A stretch of DNA of 64,000 nt from a virus (IMGVR_UViG_3300009008_000023:1-64000); one strand, 5' to 3'; counted from the first letter of the stretch, positions 1,673 to 34,725 are shown. The notes: a model not told the origin generated them from the letters alone. Numbers and translations: made by a program.

Positions 1673-3411
1673 TATTTTGCCTCCTTAGTAATCGTATGTA
1701 CACCTCGTAACTGTACAATCACCTTAGATAGTGAATGCATAGCTTTCTGTACTACAGCTTCATTTACACCAGACATTCCAACTCTAATTGACAATAGTAG
1801 CTTAGCTAATTCTGCTATAACTTTCTCATACATTGGAATTAGCGCCACATACTCTGAAATATTATCTTTGTTTATTAAACCAAGAGCTAATGTAGCATCT
1901 ACAGAGTTCTTATCAGCAAAAGTCGTAATACTAGTAGCAACTTTACTAATCTCGTCCTTAATATCAGTAAATTTCGCATTATATTCTTCTGATATCATCT
2001 TCTCAAGCTTATTTAGAGCCATTGGTGCACGAACATGTGCTAATTTCACTCTTTGGCCATTCTTGAGCTCAGCTATTGCATCTAAATCAGTCTCATGTAC
2101 ATTACAATGAATACAACTCCACATAGCTTCATCATAATCAAGTTCACTTATCTTAGAAGCATACTTATTAAACTCTTTACCATGCAGATAATACATTCCT
2201 GTAGTATCTCGTCCTACATGATGTTCATATAAACCATCATTAAGGTGTTCGAACTGGTGCGTTGTTATTCTCTGCGCTAATTTCACGAATTTCGCATTCT
2301 TAGGTACATAGTAAGAGTCTGTATACACATCATGCTCCACAAATTCAGTTCGCTCGATATTTAGCGGGTAATATGATACTTTCTTTAACCCATCAAATCC
2401 AGCTACTTGGCTCTGACCAACTCCTGCTATCTTCTGTATGCCTACTACTTCAAATGGAGACGTTGCAGTATTACCTACTACGTAAACACCAGTATCACCG
2501 ATACTGGGCTCTGTATGCATCTCTTCAAAGTTATTTATAGCTGTAGGAATTTCATTGTTATCAAAGACCGTATAAGCGCCTTCTTTTGTTAAGAACAGTG
2601 TGCGTTCCCCCAAGTTATAAGAATTAGACTTCTCATAACTAGCAGTTTTCTCAATCTCACTGCTATTAGCTTTTAACTGACATGAATCAGCTTCGGGCTT
2701 ACTTACATCGAGCCTATATGTATAATTTACTCTGCTATTAGCCTGTTTAACTACATAATTACCATTCTCATCCTCATACACGTACTGTCGATCCATATCG
2801 AGCCCACGCATCAGATTTGTGGCAAAGTCATTTACATCGGTAGTCTCAAGATTAGCTATCTTTTCAATTAAATCAGTGTTCTCACTAGTAATAAACGCTT
2901 GCATATTCTCCAGCGTATAATCTAGTAAGGCTTTTCTATCTTCCTCTAGCACTGTACTTGCAACCTTATCAATCACTGATGCATACTTAACACCTGAGTA
3001 ATCAGATTCAGGTTGTTCTAAGTCCTTATTAAATAAGAATTGATCAAACACTCTGCTTGCATCAATCTTATTCTCTTTAAATGCCTCAGGATTGTTGAAT
3101 ATTGCCACTAACGTAGTATCGTTTAACGGTAACGTTAATCCATTCGCAATAATTACATCCATATCAGATACAGCCCTATCATTTATAATCACGGGAATAG
3201 CAGCAACATTTTGTACGTTGATGACACCAACTGCGTAACCTCTTTTGAAGTCTTTATTTTTCCACTCTACTGCTAATTCGAAATTTGATAATGACGGATA
3301 TTCTGATAATAGACGCGTTATAATAGTTTTAACCCAGGTCGTATGATCTGAGTCAACGTAAAATGTCGCTGTTTTCTCCAGGCTTTCCCGGTCTAAAAAC
3401 AATGCATCCAT
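1672..3411 (-). CDS. hypothetical large protein (579 aa), putative virion structural protein
   Basis: Long ORF in minus-strand structural module; no recognisable catalytic motif. Confidence 0.4.
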   Translation of the reverse strand: MDALFLDRESLEKTATFYVDSDHTTWVKTIITRLLSEYPSLSNFELAVEWKNKDFKRGYAVGVINVQNVAAIPVIINDRAVSDMDVIIANGLTLPLNDTTLVAIFNNPEAFKENKIDASRVFDQFLFNKDLEQPESDYSGVKYASVIDKVASTVLEEDRKALLDYTLENMQAFITSENTDLIEKIANLETTDVNDFATNLMRGLDMDRQYVYEDENGNYVVKQANSRVNYTYRLDVSKPEADSCQLKANSSEIEKTASYEKSNSYNLGERTLFLTKEGAYTVFDNNEIPTAINNFEEMHTEPSIGDTGVYVVGNTATSPFEVVGIQKIAGVGQSQVAGFDGLKKVSYYPLNIERTEFVEHDVYTDSYYVPKNAKFVKLAQRITTHQFEHLNDGLYEHHVGRDTTGMYYLHGKEFNKYASKISELDYDEAMWSCIHCNVHETDLDAIAELKNGQRVKLAHVRAPMALNKLEKMISEEYNAKFTDIKDEISKVATSITTFADKNSVDATLALGLINKDNISEYVALIPMYEKVIAELAKLLLSIRVGMSGVNEAVVQKAMHSLSKVIVQLRGVHTITKEAK

Positions 3412-3516
3412 ATAAAATCTCCTTTGTTAGGTCATCAACTGCCTCTAATATAGTAATATACAGTCTTTTTGTCAAGTTCTTTCATTTTTAAGCTAAAAAA
3501 GAGGGCAACTGCCCTC

Positions 3517-4218
3517 TTATTTATGTTGTACAACGTCCTTATACAAACACCTAATACGCTCATCACGTACCGAACGCTTGTCCACGTGCATGTGACCTGC
3601 GTACCACGCTTTGTACTCTACTGATTGCATTAAATGTTCAAGAAACATGGCTGTTGGATCCTTATACTTATCATACCACCAATCGCCCGATGTTTCCTGC
3701 ACAATAATAGTTGGCATCGTATGAGTAATCATTATATCAACTTCATACCCACATTTCTCGAGATTACTAATAGCATAATCTTGTTCCTTAACTGTGGGAA
3801 TCTCCCCTGGCCACCACGAAATACCTTCAACACGCATTTCCCTATCTATTGATAGTGCACCACCAAAAGTAAACACCTTCTGATCAGCTATCTCATAAAT
3901 TTCACCTCTTCGAAGGTGAAAAATAGACGGGTAATCCTCAAAATAGCCTACTTCACCTCCAAAGAGCTGTTTTCTAGGCAATTCTTGTAATAACTCATGA
4001 TTATCATGGTTTCCATCAATGAAAAGCGTGATCCAAGGTGAATTTTCGAGCCACTGCATACCTATAGTATCAATTTTTGTCCAAACATGCCCAAAATCAC
4101 CGCAAATCACTAAAATATCTTTAGCTTTGGACATTCCAATGAATTTTGCTCTATTCCTAAAGGAGTCTAAATGCTGTTGAGCTCTACCATGCAAATCACC
4201 TGTTATCCATACCCTCAT
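3517..4218 (-). CDS. calcineurin-like metallophosphoesterase (Ser/Thr phosphatase family)
   Basis: Motifs GDLHG, GDFGHVW, GNHDNHE, GHMH typical of metallophosphoesterases. Confidence 0.75.
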   Translation of the reverse strand: MRVWITGDLHGRAQQHLDSFRNRAKFIGMSKAKDILVICGDFGHVWTKIDTIGMQWLENSPWITLFIDGNHDNHELLQELPRKQLFGGEVGYFEDYPSIFHLRRGEIYEIADQKVFTFGGALSIDREMRVEGISWWPGEIPTVKEQDYAISNLEKCGYEVDIMITHTMPTIIVQETSGDWWYDKYKDPTAMFLEHLMQSVEYKAWYAGHMHVDKRSVRDERIRCLYKDVVQHK

Positions 4219-4219
4219 T

Positions 4220-4498
4220 TTACTCCTCTACTGTCACTCCTGAGTCAAACAGGCTATACGTAATATGGGTTGGATACAAAACAACGTCGTCAGGCATATA
4301 AAAATTAGCATTAATAATTTCTCTTACTTTTTCATCCATGTTCGTATACTCACGGACTGTAATTACACGGCCACATGCACTACACTTCACATCAGTATAT
4401 GTTGATCCATCTTTTTTCAAAGATATAGTACAGAGTTGACCGCATGTTTTATGTATGTGTGTCATTTTATTCTTTCTGTTAAAGAAAAGAGGCTCCAA
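4220..4498 (-). CDS. hypothetical zinc-ribbon protein (92 aa)
   Basis: CxxC...CxxC pattern (TCGQLC...CSACG). Confidence 0.35.
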   Translation of the reverse strand: MEPLFFNRKNKMTHIHKTCGQLCTISLKKDGSTYTDVKCSACGRVITVREYTNMDEKVREIINANFYMPDDVVLYPTHITYSLFDSGVTVEE

Positions 4499-14997: not shown

Positions 14998-16022
14998 AGA
15001 AATGCCCTTTATGGTGGTAACACCATATCGAAACTTCTCTAATTGCTGGGATATCCTAATTATAGGACGATCAGCAGCGAAGCCTAATCTAATTAGTTCT
15101 TGCATTAGTAAGTATTATTTGTTATATTTACTATAGTTACTAACTAATTAGGAGTTTTTTTATGATAGGAAAACAATTTGGAAACGATCTTGTTATAGAT
15201 AGAAAAGTTGAACAAAGATCATATGGTAAATTAACCCTTTACCTTGTTGAGTGCCAAAAATGTAGCAACAAAAAATGGGTTCAAAAATCCGCCCTAGTTA
15301 ATGGAAATATAAAGTGTAGAGTAGGTATATGTAACAGACAAGTACCTGATTTCACTAATCAAATATTTCATTATTGGACTGCTTTAGAATATGTAAAAGA
15401 TAAAAAATCACGTGGATGGTTATGGAAGTGTAAGTGTAAATGCGGGAATGTGGGATATGTCCGCACTCATACATTACAATCTGGACAATCAAAGTCTTGT
15501 GGTTGTTATATGAAAGAACAACTGTCTCAACGTCAAACACTTACTGACTATATAGGACCAAAACGTGAAATTTATAGAAATTACAATAGAGCCTCTAATA
15601 AGAGAAATTATGAATTTTTATTAACTGAAGAACAATTTTTTGAACTCATTGAACAGCCATGTTTTTACTGTGGAATAGAAAAGTCAATGGTTTTTTATCG
15701 ACAAAACTATAGATACAATGGTGTTGATAGAGTAGACAATTCTATAGGATACACCATAAATAACACAGTGTCATGTTGTAAAAATTGTAATAACTCTAAA
15801 AGTACACTATCTCAACAAGAATGGTTTAATTGGCTTAAACAAGTTTATACCTATCAGAAAGCTCAAGGAACGTTCAACGACTAGTCGAAAGACGTACACC
15901 CAAGTGGGTGGAAATGGGAAGGCTCCTATTAGTTTAGGAGTTTGATATAGTCTGATCTACATAGTAATATGTAGCAGCTCACAAGAGCGGGCTGAGATTA
16001 ACGACCTCAGTTAAACACAATG
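14998..16022 (+). mobile_element. group I intron (1025 nt) interrupting nadV, carrying an HNH homing endonuclease ORF
   Basis: Joining T14997 to A16023 restores the frame and the conserved NAMPT motif VQ(V/S)W-YP(T/I)T(I/V)ATNS; 5' exon ends in U, intron ends in G. Confidence 0.7.
15162..15884 (+). CDS. intron-encoded HNH homing endonuclease
   Basis: C-terminal GVDRVDNSIGYTINNTVSCCKNCNNSK HNH motif; own RBS; AT-rich codon usage. Confidence 0.8.
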   Translation: MIGKQFGNDLVIDRKVEQRSYGKLTLYLVECQKCSNKKWVQKSALVNGNIKCRVGICNRQVPDFTNQIFHYWTALEYVKDKKSRGWLWKCKCKCGNVGYVRTHTLQSGQSKSCGCYMKEQLSQRQTLTDYIGPKREIYRNYNRASNKRNYEFLLTEEQFFELIEQPCFYCGIEKSMVFYRQNYRYNGVDRVDNSIGYTINNTVSCCKNCNNSKSTLSQQEWFNWLKQVYTYQKAQGTFND

Positions 16023-16978
16023 ATCCTACTACAATCGCCACCAATAGCCATATGGCAAGAACTAACATTAACCAGTATCTTGAAGATACTGGTGACCCCA
16101 CACTCATTGACTTCAAGCTTCACGACTTCGGTTACAGGGGAGTATCATGTGATGAGCAGGCCGGCATTGGTGGAATGGCTCACCTCACCTCCTTCATGGG
16201 TACTGATACTGTTAAAGGTATCATAACCGCGCAACAGTATTACAATGCACAGATGTGTGGATTTTCCATTCCGGCCAGCGAACACTCAACCATGACTTCA
16301 TGGGGGAAGGATCATGAGCTTGATGCTTTCCGTAACATGCTCGATCAACATCCCACAGGACTAGTTGCATGTGTGAGTGATTCATTTGACATCTATCATG
16401 CATGTGAACAGTACTGGGGCACTGATCTTAAAGATCAAATCCTCGGAAGAGACGGCACTCTTGTCGTCCGTCCTGACTCTGGTGACCCCATCGAAGTAAC
16501 AGAGAAAGTGTTTGAAATTCTCTGGAAACAGTTTGGTGGAACCACCAATGAGAAGGGATACCGTGTTCTTGATCCCCACATCCGCATGATTCAGGGCGAC
16601 GGCATAGACTTAAATATGCTGGCTATGATTCTTGCCAACTTTAAGGACAAGATGATTTCGGCTGATAACATCGCGTTTGGGTCTGGTGGGGGACTTCTCC
16701 AGCAGTTCAATCGTGATACTGGTCGCTTTGCTTTCAAGTGCTGTCACGCTATTATCAATGGCGAAAGCCGCGACATTTTTAAAAGCCCTATTGCGGGTAG
16801 TAAGCCTTCGAAGAAGGGTTATCTCACTCTACAGAAGAATGATGGTGGCGCGTTCGAGACCATCAATGATAGGGTATTACACTACTCTGATGAAAACTTA
16901 CTTGAGCCGGTTTATGAGAATGGCGTCCTTTTAAAGGATCAAACATTCGCTGAAATAAAAGCTCGTATCTTGGTATAA
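16023..16978 (+). CDS. nadV: nicotinamide phosphoribosyltransferase (NadV/NAMPT), exon 2
   Basis: YPTTIATNSH...KLHDFGYRGVS...GSGGGLLQ... collinear with NAMPT central and C-terminal regions. Confidence 0.8.
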
Positions 16979-23308: not shown

Positions 23309-23474
23309 ACATCCGACAGAGCAGGAAATTAAAAAGTGGTGCTCATGTAATATGTGTGGGCATCACTTTATTAAAGCTCCGAAAAAGAGCTCTAACCCCA
23401 TTTTAAAAGGAAAAAGATTTATTTGTCCAGAATGTAAATGGGAAAACACTCGTATGGTTCCAATAAATTATTAA
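23283..23474 (+). CDS. hypothetical zinc-ribbon protein (63 aa)
   Basis: CSCNMCGH...CPECK. Confidence 0.3.
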   Translation: MLGEQKLSKHPTEQEIKKWCSCNMCGHHFIKAPKKSSNPILKGKRFICPECKWENTRMVPINY

Positions 23475-23482
23475 GGAGATAT

Positions 23483-24739
23483 ATGGAATTAGTAATTACA
23501 ACAGAAAAATTTCCAATAAAACTATGGGCACGTGAGTCAGAAATAGAAGAAAGTGCATTACAACAATTAAAAGATGTGGCTAATATGCCATTTATACATA
23601 AGCATATTGCTGTAATGCCTGACGTACATACAGGTCTTGGTGCAACCATTGGGGCTGTTATTCCTACTAATGGAGCAATAATTCCTAGTGCAGTAGGCGT
23701 AGATATTGGGTGTGGTATGCACGCTATCAAACTCAATCTTACGTATAAAGCATTTATTCAACACTTAGTAAATAACGTGTTTCCTAACATTGTTTACAAT
23801 GACGATCTTACTCGCAATCTAATTGAGTCTGCAATTCCGCACGGACGAACAGATTATGGTGGAACAAATGATGTAGGCGCATGGCCAAAACAACGTATTC
23901 CTTTATCTGTAAAGGCAGTATACTATGAGAAACTTAATTTCGAAGTTACGAAGCATGAGATTCTTCGCAGACACCCAGGCTTACTTGCAGGATTTGTTAA
24001 CAGCGTTCGTCATCTTGGCACTCTTGGCACTGGCAATCATTTCATCGAATTAGCTAAAGATGAGAGTGATAGGGTGTGGCTTATTATCCATTCGGGCTCA
24101 CGTGGAATAGGTAATAGAATAGGTACATACTTTATTAAGCTTGCAAAAAAGATTAATAAGAAATGGCATATCGATCTACCTAATCCTGATCTAGCGTACT
24201 TCCCACAAGACACTCAAGAGTTTAAAGACTACTGGGAATGTATGAAGTGGGCACAAAAGTTTGCTCGCCTCAATCGTGAGCTAATGGCACAAAGTGTGCT
24301 AAATGAACTTTGGATAGCTTCTAATGAAATAGAAAAAGAGTATGACTGCCACCATAATTTTGCTGAGTGGGATCACCAAGGGAACACTAATTTTATAGTA
24401 ACACGTAAAGGAGCCACTCGTGCCAAGAAAGACGAGATCGGAATCATCCCTGGTTCAATGGGTGCAAAGTCATATATTGTTACCGGTAAGGGCAACATGG
24501 ATTCTTTTGCTTCTTGTTCTCACGGCGCAGGTAGAAAAATGTCTCGAAAGGTGGCTAACGCTACCTTCACAGCCGAAGACCTGGAAGAACAGACGCGTGG
24601 AGTCTCTTGTAGAAAAGATGGAGACTTATGTGATGAAGCGCCTGGAGCGTACAAGTCAATTGATGAAGTTATATCCTTACAAGAAGATCTAGTTGACATA
24701 AAACATACACTTAAACAGTTTGTTTGTGTGAAAGGCTAG
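23483..24739 (+). CDS. rtcB: RNA-splicing ligase RtcB (3'-phosphate/5'-OH RNA ligase)
   Basis: MPDVHTGLGATIG, GTLGTGNHFIE, CHHNF and SCSHGAGR signature motifs; RBS AAGGAG before ATG 23483. Confidence 0.9.
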   Translation: MELVITTEKFPIKLWARESEIEESALQQLKDVANMPFIHKHIAVMPDVHTGLGATIGAVIPTNGAIIPSAVGVDIGCGMHAIKLNLTYKAFIQHLVNNVFPNIVYNDDLTRNLIESAIPHGRTDYGGTNDVGAWPKQRIPLSVKAVYYEKLNFEVTKHEILRRHPGLLAGFVNSVRHLGTLGTGNHFIELAKDESDRVWLIIHSGSRGIGNRIGTYFIKLAKKINKKWHIDLPNPDLAYFPQDTQEFKDYWECMKWAQKFARLNRELMAQSVLNELWIASNEIEKEYDCHHNFAEWDHQGNTNFIVTRKGATRAKKDEIGIIPGSMGAKSYIVTGKGNMDSFASCSHGAGRKMSRKVANATFTAEDLEEQTRGVSCRKDGDLCDEAPGAYKSIDEVISLQEDLVDIKHTLKQFVCVKG

Positions 24740-25190: not shown

Positions 25191-25819
25191 AAATAATCTC
25201 TGGTGGACAAACAGGTATTGACCAAGGTGCGTTAGATGGACTGGTAAGTTTTTCACGAAATCTTATTACTGAAGGATATGATCATTATCTTGATGGTGCA
25301 GACCCTTTACAAATATACGGGATGCTGGGTATTGGAGGGACAGCACCTAAAAATTATATGACAGAAACAGGGCCTGCATTTTTCTTGCAGACTGAGTACA
25401 AACTAAAGGAGTCTTATAGTTCTTACTATCCCGTACGAACTGAACGTAATGTAATTGATGGAGACGGTACATTAGTATTCCAATTTAAAGAATCAAGGGG
25501 TTGTAGACTAACAATTAATTTGTGTAAGAAACACAAAAAACCTTACTTAGTTAGCCCTGAATCAATTGATGAAATCTATAATTGGATAAAAGAAAATAAT
25601 ATAGAAGTTTTAAATGTTGCTGGGCATCGACAAAGCGCTTTTGATAAGCGAGACATGCACTACCATGCCAAAATAAACATTATGAAACTTCTGGGTTATA
25701 TGTACTTTGGCTCTTCATTTATGAAAAGAAGTGAGTTTCAAGGCGCTAGTTCATTACCTTACAAAAAGGAGCCAGACAATGGCAAAACTACAGCCGATGA
25801 TGAAGTTGACAAACATTGA
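25178..25819 (+). CDS. SLOG-family (YpsA/MoCo-carrier-like) nucleotide-binding protein
   Basis: N-terminal ISGGQTGIDQGALD motif characteristic of the SLOG/YpsA fold. Confidence 0.4.
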   Translation: MRKLKIISGGQTGIDQGALDGLVSFSRNLITEGYDHYLDGADPLQIYGMLGIGGTAPKNYMTETGPAFFLQTEYKLKESYSSYYPVRTERNVIDGDGTLVFQFKESRGCRLTINLCKKHKKPYLVSPESIDEIYNWIKENNIEVLNVAGHRQSAFDKRDMHYHAKINIMKLLGYMYFGSSFMKRSEFQGASSLPYKKEPDNGKTTADDEVDKH

Positions 25820-30336: not shown

Positions 30337-31245
30337 ATCGTCCAGTATTCTACCTCGTGTGGAGTGCTGGTGATCGGGTGTATGAGCTCGTTAGGATAAG
30401 GATGGTAACATCCCCAAAGATTTGGGATTAGTCCCCCAGGTCGCTTTTTCTAGCCTTCGTGGCCGTGATGATTAAGCCCGATTATAAATTATGTCTTGTC
30501 ACTTCAGACCACCCTGGGCAACGCTGATGGGTATTATTGGTTGGTAAGTGAGGCTTCTCTACGGAGGAGTTGAGTAGGTGAGGGAGCATTTCCAAAGGCT
30601 TAGCGGCTGGAGGGGTGCCGACGAGCCTATAGTGAGGCATCAAGGTAAAGTTCGAGTCGGTTGGTTCCGGCAAGAGCATAAGCCAATCAAGCAGCTAACA
30701 CGGATGGAGACGTTCGGGGGCTGTGCGATAGATAAGTGAACCAACGCTCATCAAGGGTAGGTGTGCTATTCCTGGGATCGAAAGTTCTGGGAGGCGCAAG
30801 GCCCAGTACCTATTCTGACTACTACTTTAATATAAAAGTTCCAATTGAACAGGAAATGTTTATGCGAAAAGACGCTAAAACCTGGTGCCCGGTTGAAGCG
30901 CATCTTAGCTCTATAGTCTAGGGCGGGATGTTCATCAAAGTTGACTACGCAGTGAGCCTTCGGGCAACGAGCTGCGGGGGATGGTTCGGCAAGAACCAAC
31001 CCTGAACCTTAAAAGAGTTTCCTTGATGCGGTCAGCTGCCGCCGATAGGACCCGCTTTTGGGAAAAGAGGCTTCGCCGTAAAAGATTGATTGGCTTAACC
31101 AATTGTCATCGAACCACTACGATTCCCAACCCTTCGGGGGAAAGAGCGTGGATAAGGGGCTAAGGGGAGACCCGTACGGCCAGTGCGCATAGCACGGTAA
31201 TACCAAAGGTGGTTCTAAAAATGCTGTAGTCTCAGGCATTTTTTT
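30331..31245 (+). ncRNA. candidate large structured non-coding RNA (about 0.9 kb), family unknown (GOLLD/ROOL-class candidate)
   Basis: No ORF over 77 aa on either strand; GC content above neighbours; bounded by promoter motif at 30321-30335 and terminator at 31217-31247. Confidence 0.45.
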
Positions 31246-31514: not shown

Positions 31515-31549
31515 GCCGGGGTGACGGAATTGGTAGACGTAGCGGACTT
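31515..31549 (+). tRNA. tRNA-Leu(UAA) exon 1 (acceptor 5', D arm, anticodon stem to U34)
   Basis: GCCGGGGTGACGGAATTGGTAGACGTAGCGGACTT resembles the bacterial tRNA-Leu 5' half; pairs with 3' half at 32267..32315. Confidence 0.7.
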
Positions 31550-31650
31550 ATGTAAATGAGTGCCCTGTAAGAAATTACAGGAGTAGAACTTCTCAAATTC
31601 GGGGAAACCTGTAAAATGGCAATCCCGAGCTAAGCTTAGAGTAGACGTAA

Positions 31651-31679
31651 ATAAATAGCTTGACATTTGAGTATTCCGT
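31651..31679 (+). promoter_or_regulatory. consensus sigma70 promoter (TTGACA-17 bp-TATAAT) driving the intron HNH ORF
   Basis: cTTGACAtttgagtattccgtatgTATAATtag; perfect -35 and -10 hexamers, 17-bp spacer. Confidence 0.7.
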
Positions 31680-31694
31680 ATGTATAATTAGTAC

Positions 31695-32168
31695 ATGGCA
31701 AAACAACGAAAATACACAGATGACCAGCTTAGATCAGCAGTTAAGTCAAGCCGATCAATACGTCAAGTTCTTGGTAAACTTGGACTAGCTCAAGCAGGTG
31801 GAAACTATACTTCGGTTACAAACCAGATCGCTAGGTTGCAACTTGATTCATCTCACTTTTTGGGCCGTGGGCATCGAAAAGGATCAACAACTCCAGTTGT
31901 TCCGAAACGCCCATTGTCTGAAGTGTTAGTAAAGCATTCTTCATATCAATCGTATAAGCTTAAGAAGCGATTGATTAAAGAGGGTTTGCTAAAACAAAAG
32001 TGTGATAGTTGTAATTTAGTAACTTGGTTACAAACAGACATACCTTTAGAACTGTACCATAAAAACGGTGTAAAGTCTGACAATCGAATTGAAAATCTCC
32101 AACTGTTGTGTCCAAACTGCCACGCTCTTACAAACACGTATAGAGCAAAGAACTCTAAGAAAGTGTAG
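31695..32168 (+). CDS. HNH endonuclease (intron-encoded, within tRNA-Leu intron)
   Basis: C-terminal ENLQLLCPNCHALTN HNH motif. Confidence 0.75.
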   Translation: MAKQRKYTDDQLRSAVKSSRSIRQVLGKLGLAQAGGNYTSVTNQIARLQLDSSHFLGRGHRKGSTTPVVPKRPLSEVLVKHSSYQSYKLKKRLIKEGLLKQKCDSCNLVTWLQTDIPLELYHKNGVKSDNRIENLQLLCPNCHALTNTYRAKNSKKV

Positions 32169-32266
32169 AGACTTTACGGGAAGGCTCTAAGGCTTGAGCG
32201 CTATGAGCAAGAGAAAGTCCAGACCATCAAACAGTTTAAGCTGGTAGCGAAAGCTATAGTGGTACG

Positions 32267-32317
32267 AAAATCCGCTGGCTGTAAGGTCGTACGGGTTCGA
32301 CTCCCGTCCTCGGTACC
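32267..32317 (+). tRNA. tRNA-Leu(UAA) exon 2 (A35 to 3' end, long variable arm, A73)
   Basis: AAAATCCGC + variable arm TGGCTGTAAGGTCGT + T arm ACGGGTTCGACTCCCGT + CCTCGGT-A-CC. Confidence 0.7.
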
Positions 32318-33335: not shown

Positions 33336-33773
33336 ATGAACTGTATTGATTGTAAAAAGAAAATACAGCATAAATCTAAACGTTGTAGGACATGTTATTT
33401 AAAAACAGTAAAAAGCAATAATGGTAAGAGACTGGTTTGTAAAGAATGTGGAAAGAAATACACATATAGTAAGAAAAAAGGCCACACTCTTAGTTATTGT
33501 AACACATGTAAAACAAGATTAAGCCGTAAAAAGCTAAAATTAAAAGCAATCAAATATAAAGGTGGGGAGTGTAAATTATGTGGATATCGTAAAAATCCCA
33601 CAAGTTTATCTTTTCATCATATAGATTCATCTAAAAAAGAAGCTGAAATTTCAAGACTTATAATGTCTGTTAAGTGTTGGAACACAATTAAAAAAGAATT
33701 AGACAAATGTGTACTTTTATGTGCGAACTGTCACTTAGAAGTACATGCGGGTGTTACAGAATTGGGCCTCTAG
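33336..33773 (+). CDS. HNH endonuclease (free-standing)
   Basis: C-terminal LSFHHIDSSKKEAEIS...LLCANCHLEVH HNH motif; several CxxC pairs. Confidence 0.7.
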   Translation: MNCIDCKKKIQHKSKRCRTCYLKTVKSNNGKRLVCKECGKKYTYSKKKGHTLSYCNTCKTRLSRKKLKLKAIKYKGGECKLCGYRKNPTSLSFHHIDSSKKEAEISRLIMSVKCWNTIKKELDKCVLLCANCHLEVHAGVTELGL

Positions 33774-34628: not shown

Positions 34629-34705
34629 GGCTCTATAGCTCAGTCTGGCGAGAGCGGCGGTCTCTAAAACCGTGTCAGTCGTGGGTTCAAATCCCACTGG
34701 GGCCT
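34629..34705 (+). tRNA. amber-suppressor tRNA, anticodon CUA (tRNA-Sup)
   Basis: Acceptor GGCTCTA/TGGGGCC; D arm GCTC...GAGC; anticodon stem GCGGT/ACCGT; loop C-U-CUA-A-A with U33 and A37; T arm GTGGGTTCAAATCCCAC. Confidence 0.65.
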
Positions 34706-34725
34706 CTTATCACAAAGGAGTAAGT

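Follow-up and report, generated by a model that had tools for sequence, protein, structure and literature searches.

An intron-split tRNA-Leu(UAA) gene with a group I intron and an HNH endonuclease gene in a tRNA-rich phage

The DNA analysed here is a 64,000-nucleotide (nt) stretch of viral origin (IMGVR_UViG_3300009008_000023:1-64000), which as a whole is referred to as the window. At positions 31515 to 32317 it contains a tRNA-Leu(UAA) gene that is split in the anticodon loop by a group I intron, and within the intron an HNH endonuclease gene is preceded by a promoter-like site. This arrangement had been proposed in an earlier note made from the sequence, and each element named there (the coordinates, the 35-nt 5′ half, the 717-nt intron, the stems and A73) was found where it had been placed. 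The parts of the locus, with ORF standing for open reading frame and aa for amino acids, are as follows.

31515-31549, plus strand: tRNA-Leu(UAA) 5′ exon (GCCGGGGTGACGGAATTGGTAGACGTAGCGGACTT, 35 nt; ARAGORN with intron detection), holding the acceptor 5′ strand, the D arm, the anticodon stem 5′ strand and C32, U33 and U34
31546-31561, plus strand: P1, in which ACUU of the exon and A of the intron (31546-31550) pair with UGAGU, the internal guide (31557-31561)
31550-32266, plus strand: group I intron, 717 nt, between U34 and A35
31564-31646, plus strand: 5′ ribozyme domain, with P2 (31564-70/31575-81, GAAA loop), the P3 5′ strand (31589-94), P4 (31598-603/31624-29), P5 (31607-09/31618-20) and the P6 5′ strand (31635-41)
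31647-32151, plus strand: P6-loop insertion, 505 nt, which includes the promoter-like site and the greater part of the HNH ORF
31660-31688, plus strand: sigma-70 consensus TTGACA-N17-TATAAT, 12/12 match, a candidate promoter
31695-32168, plus strand: HNH endonuclease ORF, 157 aa (PHROG 10822, Pfam HNH_3, conserved motif)
32153-32266, plus strand: 3′ ribozyme domain, from the P6 3′ strand (32153-59) through P9b, with P7 (32170-73/32216-19), the P3 3′ strand (32178-83), P8 (32184-87/32205-08, inner 32191-93/32200-02), P9 (32223-26/32260-63), P9a (32232-34/32241-43) and P9b (32245-48/32253-56, GAAA loop)
32266, plus strand: terminal guanosine (omega-G), invariant in 24/24 aligned introns
32267-32317, plus strand: tRNA-Leu(UAA) 3′ exon (AAAATCCGCTGGCTGTAAGGTCGTACGGGTTCGACTCCCGTCCTCGGTACC), starting with AAAATCCGC and ending with CCTCGGT-A-CC, holding A35, A36, A37 and A38, the anticodon stem 3′ strand, the long variable arm, the T arm, the acceptor 3′ strand, A73 (32315) and CC

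The split tRNA gene and the intron core

When ARAGORN was run with intron detection, as the earlier note had suggested, a tRNA-Leu(taa) i(36,717) was called at exactly 31515..32317, with the break after U34 that the note had described. The joined exons form a clean class II tRNA-Leu cloverleaf with the anticodon UAA. The acceptor stem has 7 bp, two of them G-U, the D stem has 3 bp, and the 5-bp anticodon stem (GCGGA/UCCGC) closes the loop CUUAAAA. The variable arm is long, with a 4-bp stem, and is followed by the T arm (ACGGG/CCCGU), A73 and CC. The base after this CC is a G, so that the CCA end is only partly encoded. At the predicted spliced junction, GCGGACTT is joined to AAAATCCGC, with GTAGCGGACTT and AAAATCCGCTGG as the core on either side. 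Default ARAGORN and Rfam tRNA scans of the window miss this gene and find 22 and 20 other tRNAs, respectively, between 33.7 and 54.3 kb; it is the sole split tRNA in the 64 kb.

Exons and intron were compared in an alignment of 24 sequences, in which the P6 insert was removed from the four ORF-bearing ones and P1-P9 were drawn on the window sequence. In the stems that join the two exons, 97.6% of cells are paired, versus 30-44% when the partners are slid. Compensatory changes are present in 20 of the 24 exon pairs, including 6/7 of the acceptor stem and 3/5 of the anticodon stem, and the acceptor, D and anticodon stems all co-vary with the 3′ exon. Judged from these aligned sequences, covariation of the exon stems across the intron rules out a chance arrangement. 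The window has a G+C content of 39% and TTA is its top leucine codon (35% of Leu codons); a second tRNA with a UAA anticodon was not found in the 23-tRNA array. The gene is probably a working tRNA-Leu(UAA) of a large, tRNA-rich marine phage, in which its product would be charged and used.

The intron sequence folds into the helices expected of a group I ribozyme. In P1, the U34-G wobble at the 5′ splice site and its two neighbouring pairs are invariant in 24/24 sequences. Across the 56 pairs of P1-P9, 95.1% of cells are in standard pairs, compared to 78.7% after column shuffles and 28-41% with the partners slid. Both sides have changed in 33/56 of these pairs, and none of 500 shuffles reaches any of the observed measures. 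Such double changes are found in P2 (7/7), P6 (7/7), all pairs of P9b, P3 (4/6) and P8 (3/4); P7 is invariant in the alignment and is therefore neutral as covariation evidence. When 21 relatives, without the window, were used to build a covariance model for the 3′ domain, the model gave a single, full-length match in the 64 kb (32158-32272, 101.2 bits, E 7e-21). Folded by itself, the ORF-deleted precursor has a minimum-energy structure that contains P1-P6, P9b and both the acceptor and the T stem (z = −2.8). The sequence GGTAGCGAAAGCTA, seen earlier as a P9-like GAAA hairpin at the 3′ intron end, corresponds to helix P9b, and GAGAAAGTCCAG includes the P7 3′ strand. The P6-loop insertion, whose boundaries were set by the alignment, is missing from ORF-less relatives. 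The intron is, by covariation and model match, a group I ribozyme of the tRNA-Leu (IC-type) lineage, in agreement with what had been claimed for the anticodon loop, and it would be expected to splice itself.

The intron-encoded HNH gene and the promoter-like site

The ORF in the P6 loop, for which an HNH endonuclease had likewise been claimed, matches PHROG 10822 'HNH endonuclease' with an E-value of 1.5e-45. Its motif, CxxC...H...N...CxxCH, is made up of C103, C106, H122, N134, C139, C142 and H143; C106 is kept in at least 90% of 30 homologues and the other residues are invariant in them. An AlphaFold model of the protein (predicted local distance difference test score, pLDDT, 86.9) combines a helical domain at the N-terminus with a beta-beta-alpha unit at the C-terminus. 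The Foldseek matches of this model are all HNH nucleases (McrA, Cas5-HNH, Cap5 and colicin E7), and a sequence search of the PDB with the protein returned zero matches. The stop codon and the last 17 nt of the ORF overlap the P6 3′ strand and J6/7. Overlap of intron ORFs with ribozyme helices is common.

More than 2,300 homologues of the HNH protein were found, and the identical protein is encoded by marine metagenome contigs with this same locus. The phage is present in samples ENA SAMN10231913/-894/-914 and JGI 3300009128 and 3300007510. The closest bacterial homologues, P0017 (63% identity, on a 2.2-Mb contig) and P0006 (61%), sit in chromosomal tRNA genes that read ...GGACTT/intron...G/AAAATCC, which is tRNA-Leu(UAA) with the same split site; ARAGORN mislabels both host genes. 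Split tRNAs enclose 23 of the best 80 viral homologue loci, and 14 of these tRNAs are Leu(taa). In one IMG/VR contig (L097, ~3682-4453), a homologous HNH ORF occupies the same P6 loop and is encoded by the strand complementary to that of the tRNA and intron. The distribution of these genes fits a tRNA-intron specialist that moves semi-independently of the ribozyme.

The perfect TTGACA-17-TATAAT that had been noticed ahead of the HNH gene is present at 31660-31688 and is its single occurrence in the 64 kb, where the chance expectation is 0.08. The HNH ATG starts 7 nt past the −10 element and has no Shine-Dalgarno sequence. The usual spacing from a −10 element to the start site is 7 nt, which would place the +1 on the A of the ATG (31695), and a leaderless mRNA is thus predicted. 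Use of the sigma-70 consensus by the host of this phage is an assumption. A similar geometry is found in the L029 lineage, in which TGcTATAAT-N6-ATG provides an extended −10. A −10 with at least 5/6 matches near the ATG is present in 7 of 19 tRNA-intron HNH genes. Early expression of the endonuclease by host RNA polymerase, independent of splicing, is plausible, with chances that are about even. Separately, a hairpin predicted over the HNH start codon, considered as a translational switch, was dropped since it is not significant (z = −0.63).

Relatives, selection and genomic setting

A BLAST search of 50,697 phage records gave matches only in Agrobacterium phage Atu_ph07, three huge uncultured phages and partial crAss-like ones, none of which carries a split-tRNA annotation. 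In Atu_ph07, a cultured jumbo phage, tRNA-Leu(taa) is split by a 278-nt ORF-less group I intron (L001 2252-2613, equal to MF403008 ~112890-113251; RF00028, the Rfam group I intron model, 48.9 bits, E 1e-11). A 'hypothetical protein' coding sequence covers the split gene in its record, and the Atu_ph07 genome paper gives 33 tRNAs and does not mention introns. The 595-kb uncultured phage LR756511 carries a 700-nt intron in the same arrangement as the window, with a homologous HNH gene. Scanning IMG/VR with the P7 motif GTGTAGAGACTNNACGG yielded at least 119 contigs, and among the 119 listed, 34 hold a tRNA-Leu(taa) broken at the position seen here, in many cases within a tRNA array.

Other tRNAs in these contigs (L004-L122) also seem to be split by ~200-nt group I introns, namely Arg(tct), 'Tyr(ata)', Ser, Met, Pro and Lys, the ARAGORN isotype labels for these split phage tRNAs being unreliable. 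Five contigs (L021, L023, L061, L094 and L097) have intron-split UAA-anticodon tRNAs that lack a long variable arm and are therefore class I, unlike canonical tRNA-Leu. In L036, a ROOL RNA (3148-3722, 323 bits) adjoins a 26-tRNA array that also holds a split tRNA-Leu.

The bacterial scan, which used one genome per species and the motif GGTGYAGAGACTNNAYGG, gave 120 loci, of which 38, spread over many phyla, have a split tRNA-Leu(taa). Core identity to the window intron is 57-78% for viral copies, ~70% for a Bacteroidota metagenome-assembled genome (L540) and for Phenylobacterium (L457), and 55-61% for cyanobacteria (Oscillatoria, Limnothrix, Nostocaceae and Calothrix). The nearest neighbour is viral for 31 of 33 viral introns, a count that is indicative only, the viral and bacterial sets having been drawn with slightly different motifs. 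ORF-less and ORF-bearing introns are interleaved within the family. By sequence, the intron is a member of the tRNA-Leu(UAA) 34/35 lineage in a largely phage-resident branch. The insertion site given in the earlier note, that of the cyanobacterial/plastid intron, holds, with the refinement that the nearest relatives are from phages and non-cyanobacterial bacteria.

A sister phage contig, L130, has the same gene order as the window (dCMP deaminase, ThyX, split tRNA-Leu, tRNA-Phe, tRNA-Asp and a CUA-anticodon tRNA) and encodes an HNH protein that is 86% identical. Nucleotide identity between the two loci is 32-51% in the flanks, 80-82% in the exons (16/86 differences, with compensatory stem changes), 81.6% in the HNH ORF, 99.0% in the 5′ ribozyme domain and 97.4% in the 3′ ribozyme domain. 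For the HNH ORF, the Nei-Gojobori method gives a proportion of synonymous differences (pS) of 0.55, a synonymous divergence (dS) of ~1.0 and a nonsynonymous divergence (dN) of 0.08, with dN/dS of 0.08. The ribozyme core differs at 4/212 nt (98% identical), a lower rate than that of the exons (p 1e-6) and far lower than that of synonymous sites (Fisher p 1e-29). These substitution patterns indicate that the ribozyme and the HNH protein are both under strong purifying selection. Because the core is 98% identical where synonymous sites are saturated, and because the tRNA reads the commonest leucine codon of the phage, splicing appears to be under selection. The core identity between window and L130 also exceeds what would be expected from the family-wide divergence (22-43%); this excess may reflect very tight epistatic constraint or homogenisation by gene conversion.

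The window comes from a large phage, and among its products are a 2,016-aa protein with segments of the RNA polymerase beta type, an RtcB ligase, ThyX, dCMP deaminase, nicotinamide phosphoribosyltransferase (NAMPT) and 23 tRNAs. Further features of the surroundings, all on the plus strand, are listed below.

15162-16051: probable second group I intron with an HNH/EndoVII-like ORF (15162-15884), which seems to interrupt the NAMPT gene (C-terminal part 16052-16978); based on a weak RF00028 match (15760-15974, 25.6 bits, E 0.021) and on a match of 15867-15921 to a Pseudomonas phage stretch annotated Intron_gpI
23438-24739: RtcB-type tRNA ligase gene (PHROG 1075, E 5e-136)
25287-25359: weak Hatchet ribozyme match (30.7 bits versus a gathering score of 51, E 0.042)
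30754-31238: GOLLD RNA (RF02032) match spanning the whole model (81.3 bits with an E-value of 1.8e-19, short of the gathering score of 150), situated ~280 nt before the split tRNA-Leu in a stretch whose ORFs are all short and overlapping; possibly a divergent large structured RNA beside the tRNA array
33336-33773: free-standing HNH endonuclease gene (PHROG 2255, E 7e-24), whose 3′ end overlaps the tRNA-Phe start at 33764
34629-34706: CUA-anticodon tRNA of the amber-suppressor type, labelled 'Pyl' by ARAGORN and kept in L130

Proposed cycle, alternatives and known systems

In the cycle proposed for this element, the gene would be transcribed as a pre-tRNA, whose intron would adopt the P1-P9 fold and leave the HNH gene as a loop on P6. 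Following the group I mechanism, exogenous guanosine would attack the U34-G wobble in P1, the freed 3′-OH of U34 would attack just past the terminal G (32266), and ligation of the exons would give an 84-nt tRNA body to which CCA would then be added. A sigma-70-type promoter of its own would probably drive the HNH gene and give a leaderless mRNA from the AUG, by which the endonuclease could be made independently of the structured intron RNA. As a putative site-specific DNA endonuclease, the HNH protein would cut or nick the intron-less tRNA-Leu(UAA) genes of co-infecting relatives. Repair would copy the intron into the cut gene (homing), and the element would persist in phage populations. A working tRNA, a self-splicing intron and a homing HNH endonuclease together form what is, with high probability, the best explanation of the locus, with catalysis, homing, target and promoter use predicted from the sequence.

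Several results weigh against this explanation. The window intron scores 16.1 bits with RF00028 (E 0.24, against a gathering threshold of 50 bits) in a match that is mis-aligned into the ORF, and it is not matched in a scan of the window at the Rfam gathering thresholds. The low score is explained by the 505-nt ORF insert in the P6 loop, which the model is unable to bridge, and 12/12 ORF-less relatives that were scored pass (56.9-68.3 bits); the RF00028 search that the earlier note had proposed therefore requires that the ORF be taken out or that relatives be included. The HNH protein scores 24.2 bits with Pfam HNH_3, just below the cut-off of 24.8, and its Foldseek matches are weak (best E 0.04). 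Intron-less tRNA-Leu(UAA) genes number in the hundreds among matches to exon-junction patterns in viral contigs and in one metagenome scan, and a syntenic intron-less allele was not found among them. The intron is found in both close relatives, and recent homing is thus not directly indicated. Doubt also attaches to the promoter: at least one perfect consensus occurs in 8 of 100 shuffled 64-kb windows, the −10 of L130 has decayed to TACATT, 5 nt from the ATG, and L002 has an AGGGG Shine-Dalgarno before the ATG and no clear promoter that could be seen.

These last observations, together with the minority of tRNA-intron HNH genes that have a −10 near the ATG, favour a reading in which the ribozyme and tRNA are functional and the promoter is a chance or decaying match, with the HNH protein translated from the pre-tRNA or excised intron, or barely expressed. 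This is a real possibility, somewhat short of an even chance. On the other side, the window ATG lacks a Shine-Dalgarno sequence while TATAAT-N6-ATG sets the +1 on it, this geometry, with an extended −10, is seen again in the L029 lineage, which is independent, the −35 of L130 is intact, and an ORF so strongly purified by selection must be expressed somehow. It is unlikely that the intron is an immobile, vertically inherited passenger whose HNH protein has been domesticated, helps splicing or has another target. The missing syntenic intron-less allele would agree with such a history, as would the presence of the intron in both diverged relatives with an ORF dS of ~1, which implies long co-residence, and the mostly separate clustering of viral and bacterial tRNA-Leu introns. 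However, the HNH family recurs in the same loop in unrelated phages and bacteria and in either orientation, the interleaving of ORF-less and ORF-bearing introns is the pattern expected of a mobile endonuclease gene, and viral contigs contain an abundance of target-like tRNA-Leu(UAA) genes without an intron.

Two further readings deny the ribozyme its part. That the halves are joined by proteins, namely an endonuclease and the phage RtcB ligase (23438-24739), is suggested by the position of this 'tRNA splicing ligase' gene 7 kb upstream, and is made very improbable by the complete, covariation-backed group I core, the U-G pair, the omega-G and the extreme purifying selection. Phage RtcB enzymes are usually tied to the repair of tRNAs cut by host anticodon nucleases, and the gene in the window probably serves tRNA repair rather than the tRNA-Leu intron. 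The idea of a dead tRNA, with two remnants around a decayed intron, draws on the failure of standard tRNA finders and Rfam to see the gene. It is scarcely credible given that the stems are all intact and co-varying, that the core has kept 98% identity while neutral sites have become saturated, and that this is the sole UAA tRNA in the array although TTA is the top leucine codon.

If the preferred explanation of a spliced tRNA and a homing endonuclease is extended, HNH-armed tRNA-Leu(UAA) introns might form a large self-sustaining population in the tRNA arrays of phages, with phages moving the intron between bacterial phyla and the endonuclease possibly cutting the intron-less gene of a host or rival. 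This extension is tentative and may well not hold. If it were true, cutting by the endonuclease would give the carrier an advantage in mixed infections, and scattered bacterial tRNA-Leu introns would reflect phage-mediated transfer, not vertical descent alone. The textbook example of a possibly ancient intron is that of tRNA-Leu(UAA), and its mobile copies in phages, equipped with an endonuclease, offer a testable route by which it could spread horizontally. Introns of the Anabaena type are used in making circular RNA. The compact phage ribozymes found here, of 196-213 nt, are new natural variants of that type. Routine annotation overlooks split phage tRNAs, as in the case of the Atu_ph07 tRNA-Leu, and phage tRNA repertoires are therefore under-counted.

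A review from 2014 placed all phage introns then known in protein genes, despite the many tRNA genes of phages (PMC3984707). This statement is contradicted by the window, by 34 of the 119 listed contigs, by LR756511 and by the cultured Atu_ph07. A full-text literature search, in which subscription journals were thinly covered so that a prior description is possible, did not find a group I intron described in a phage tRNA gene. Ribozyme, insertion site and endonuclease class are each of a known kind; the setting in phage tRNA arrays and its frequency appear to be undescribed.

Compared to known systems, the window intron can be set beside the cyanobacterial/plastid tRNA-Leu(UAA) intron of the Anabaena/Nostoc PCC 7120 type, which shares the gene, the insertion site, the core architecture and a variable P6 loop and is alignable over the whole core. 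The classical insertion site of this intron is 34/35 (PMC13011429). The four cyanobacterial examples compared are 266-312 nt long, too short for an ORF, whereas the window intron is phage-borne and has an HNH gene. A 2026 mSystems survey of complete bacterial genomes found tRNA introns to be mostly IC-type with few homing-endonuclease genes, and reported an HNH gene in a Bacteroidota tRNA-Leu(UAA) intron (PMC13011429). Such non-cyanobacterial tRNA-Leu(UAA) introns share the site, the type and the HNH gene inside; they are chromosomal, whereas that of the window is carried by a phage. I-Ssp6803I, the endonuclease of the Synechocystis tRNA-fMet intron, targets the anticodon region in the gene that lacks the intron (PMC3984707, PMC13011429). 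This system likewise consists of a group I intron in a tRNA gene that encodes an endonuclease, and it differs in its PD-(D/E)XK enzyme, its tRNA-fMet host, its site at 33/34 and its location on a bacterial chromosome. In the td, nrdB and nrdD introns of phage T4, the ORFs of I-TevI-III are looped from a peripheral helix and have their own promoters, independent of the host gene. These are also phage group I introns with an endonuclease ORF in a peripheral helix, and expression of the HNH gene from its own promoter would parallel I-TevI; they differ from the window intron in that they interrupt protein-coding genes and belong to other subgroups. Finally, SegB of T4 is a free-standing homing endonuclease in a phage tRNA cluster (PMC2330249). 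Like the proposed role of the HNH protein, SegB represents a selfish endonuclease that favours inheritance of a phage tRNA region, but it belongs to the GIY-YIG family and is free-standing, with no intron.

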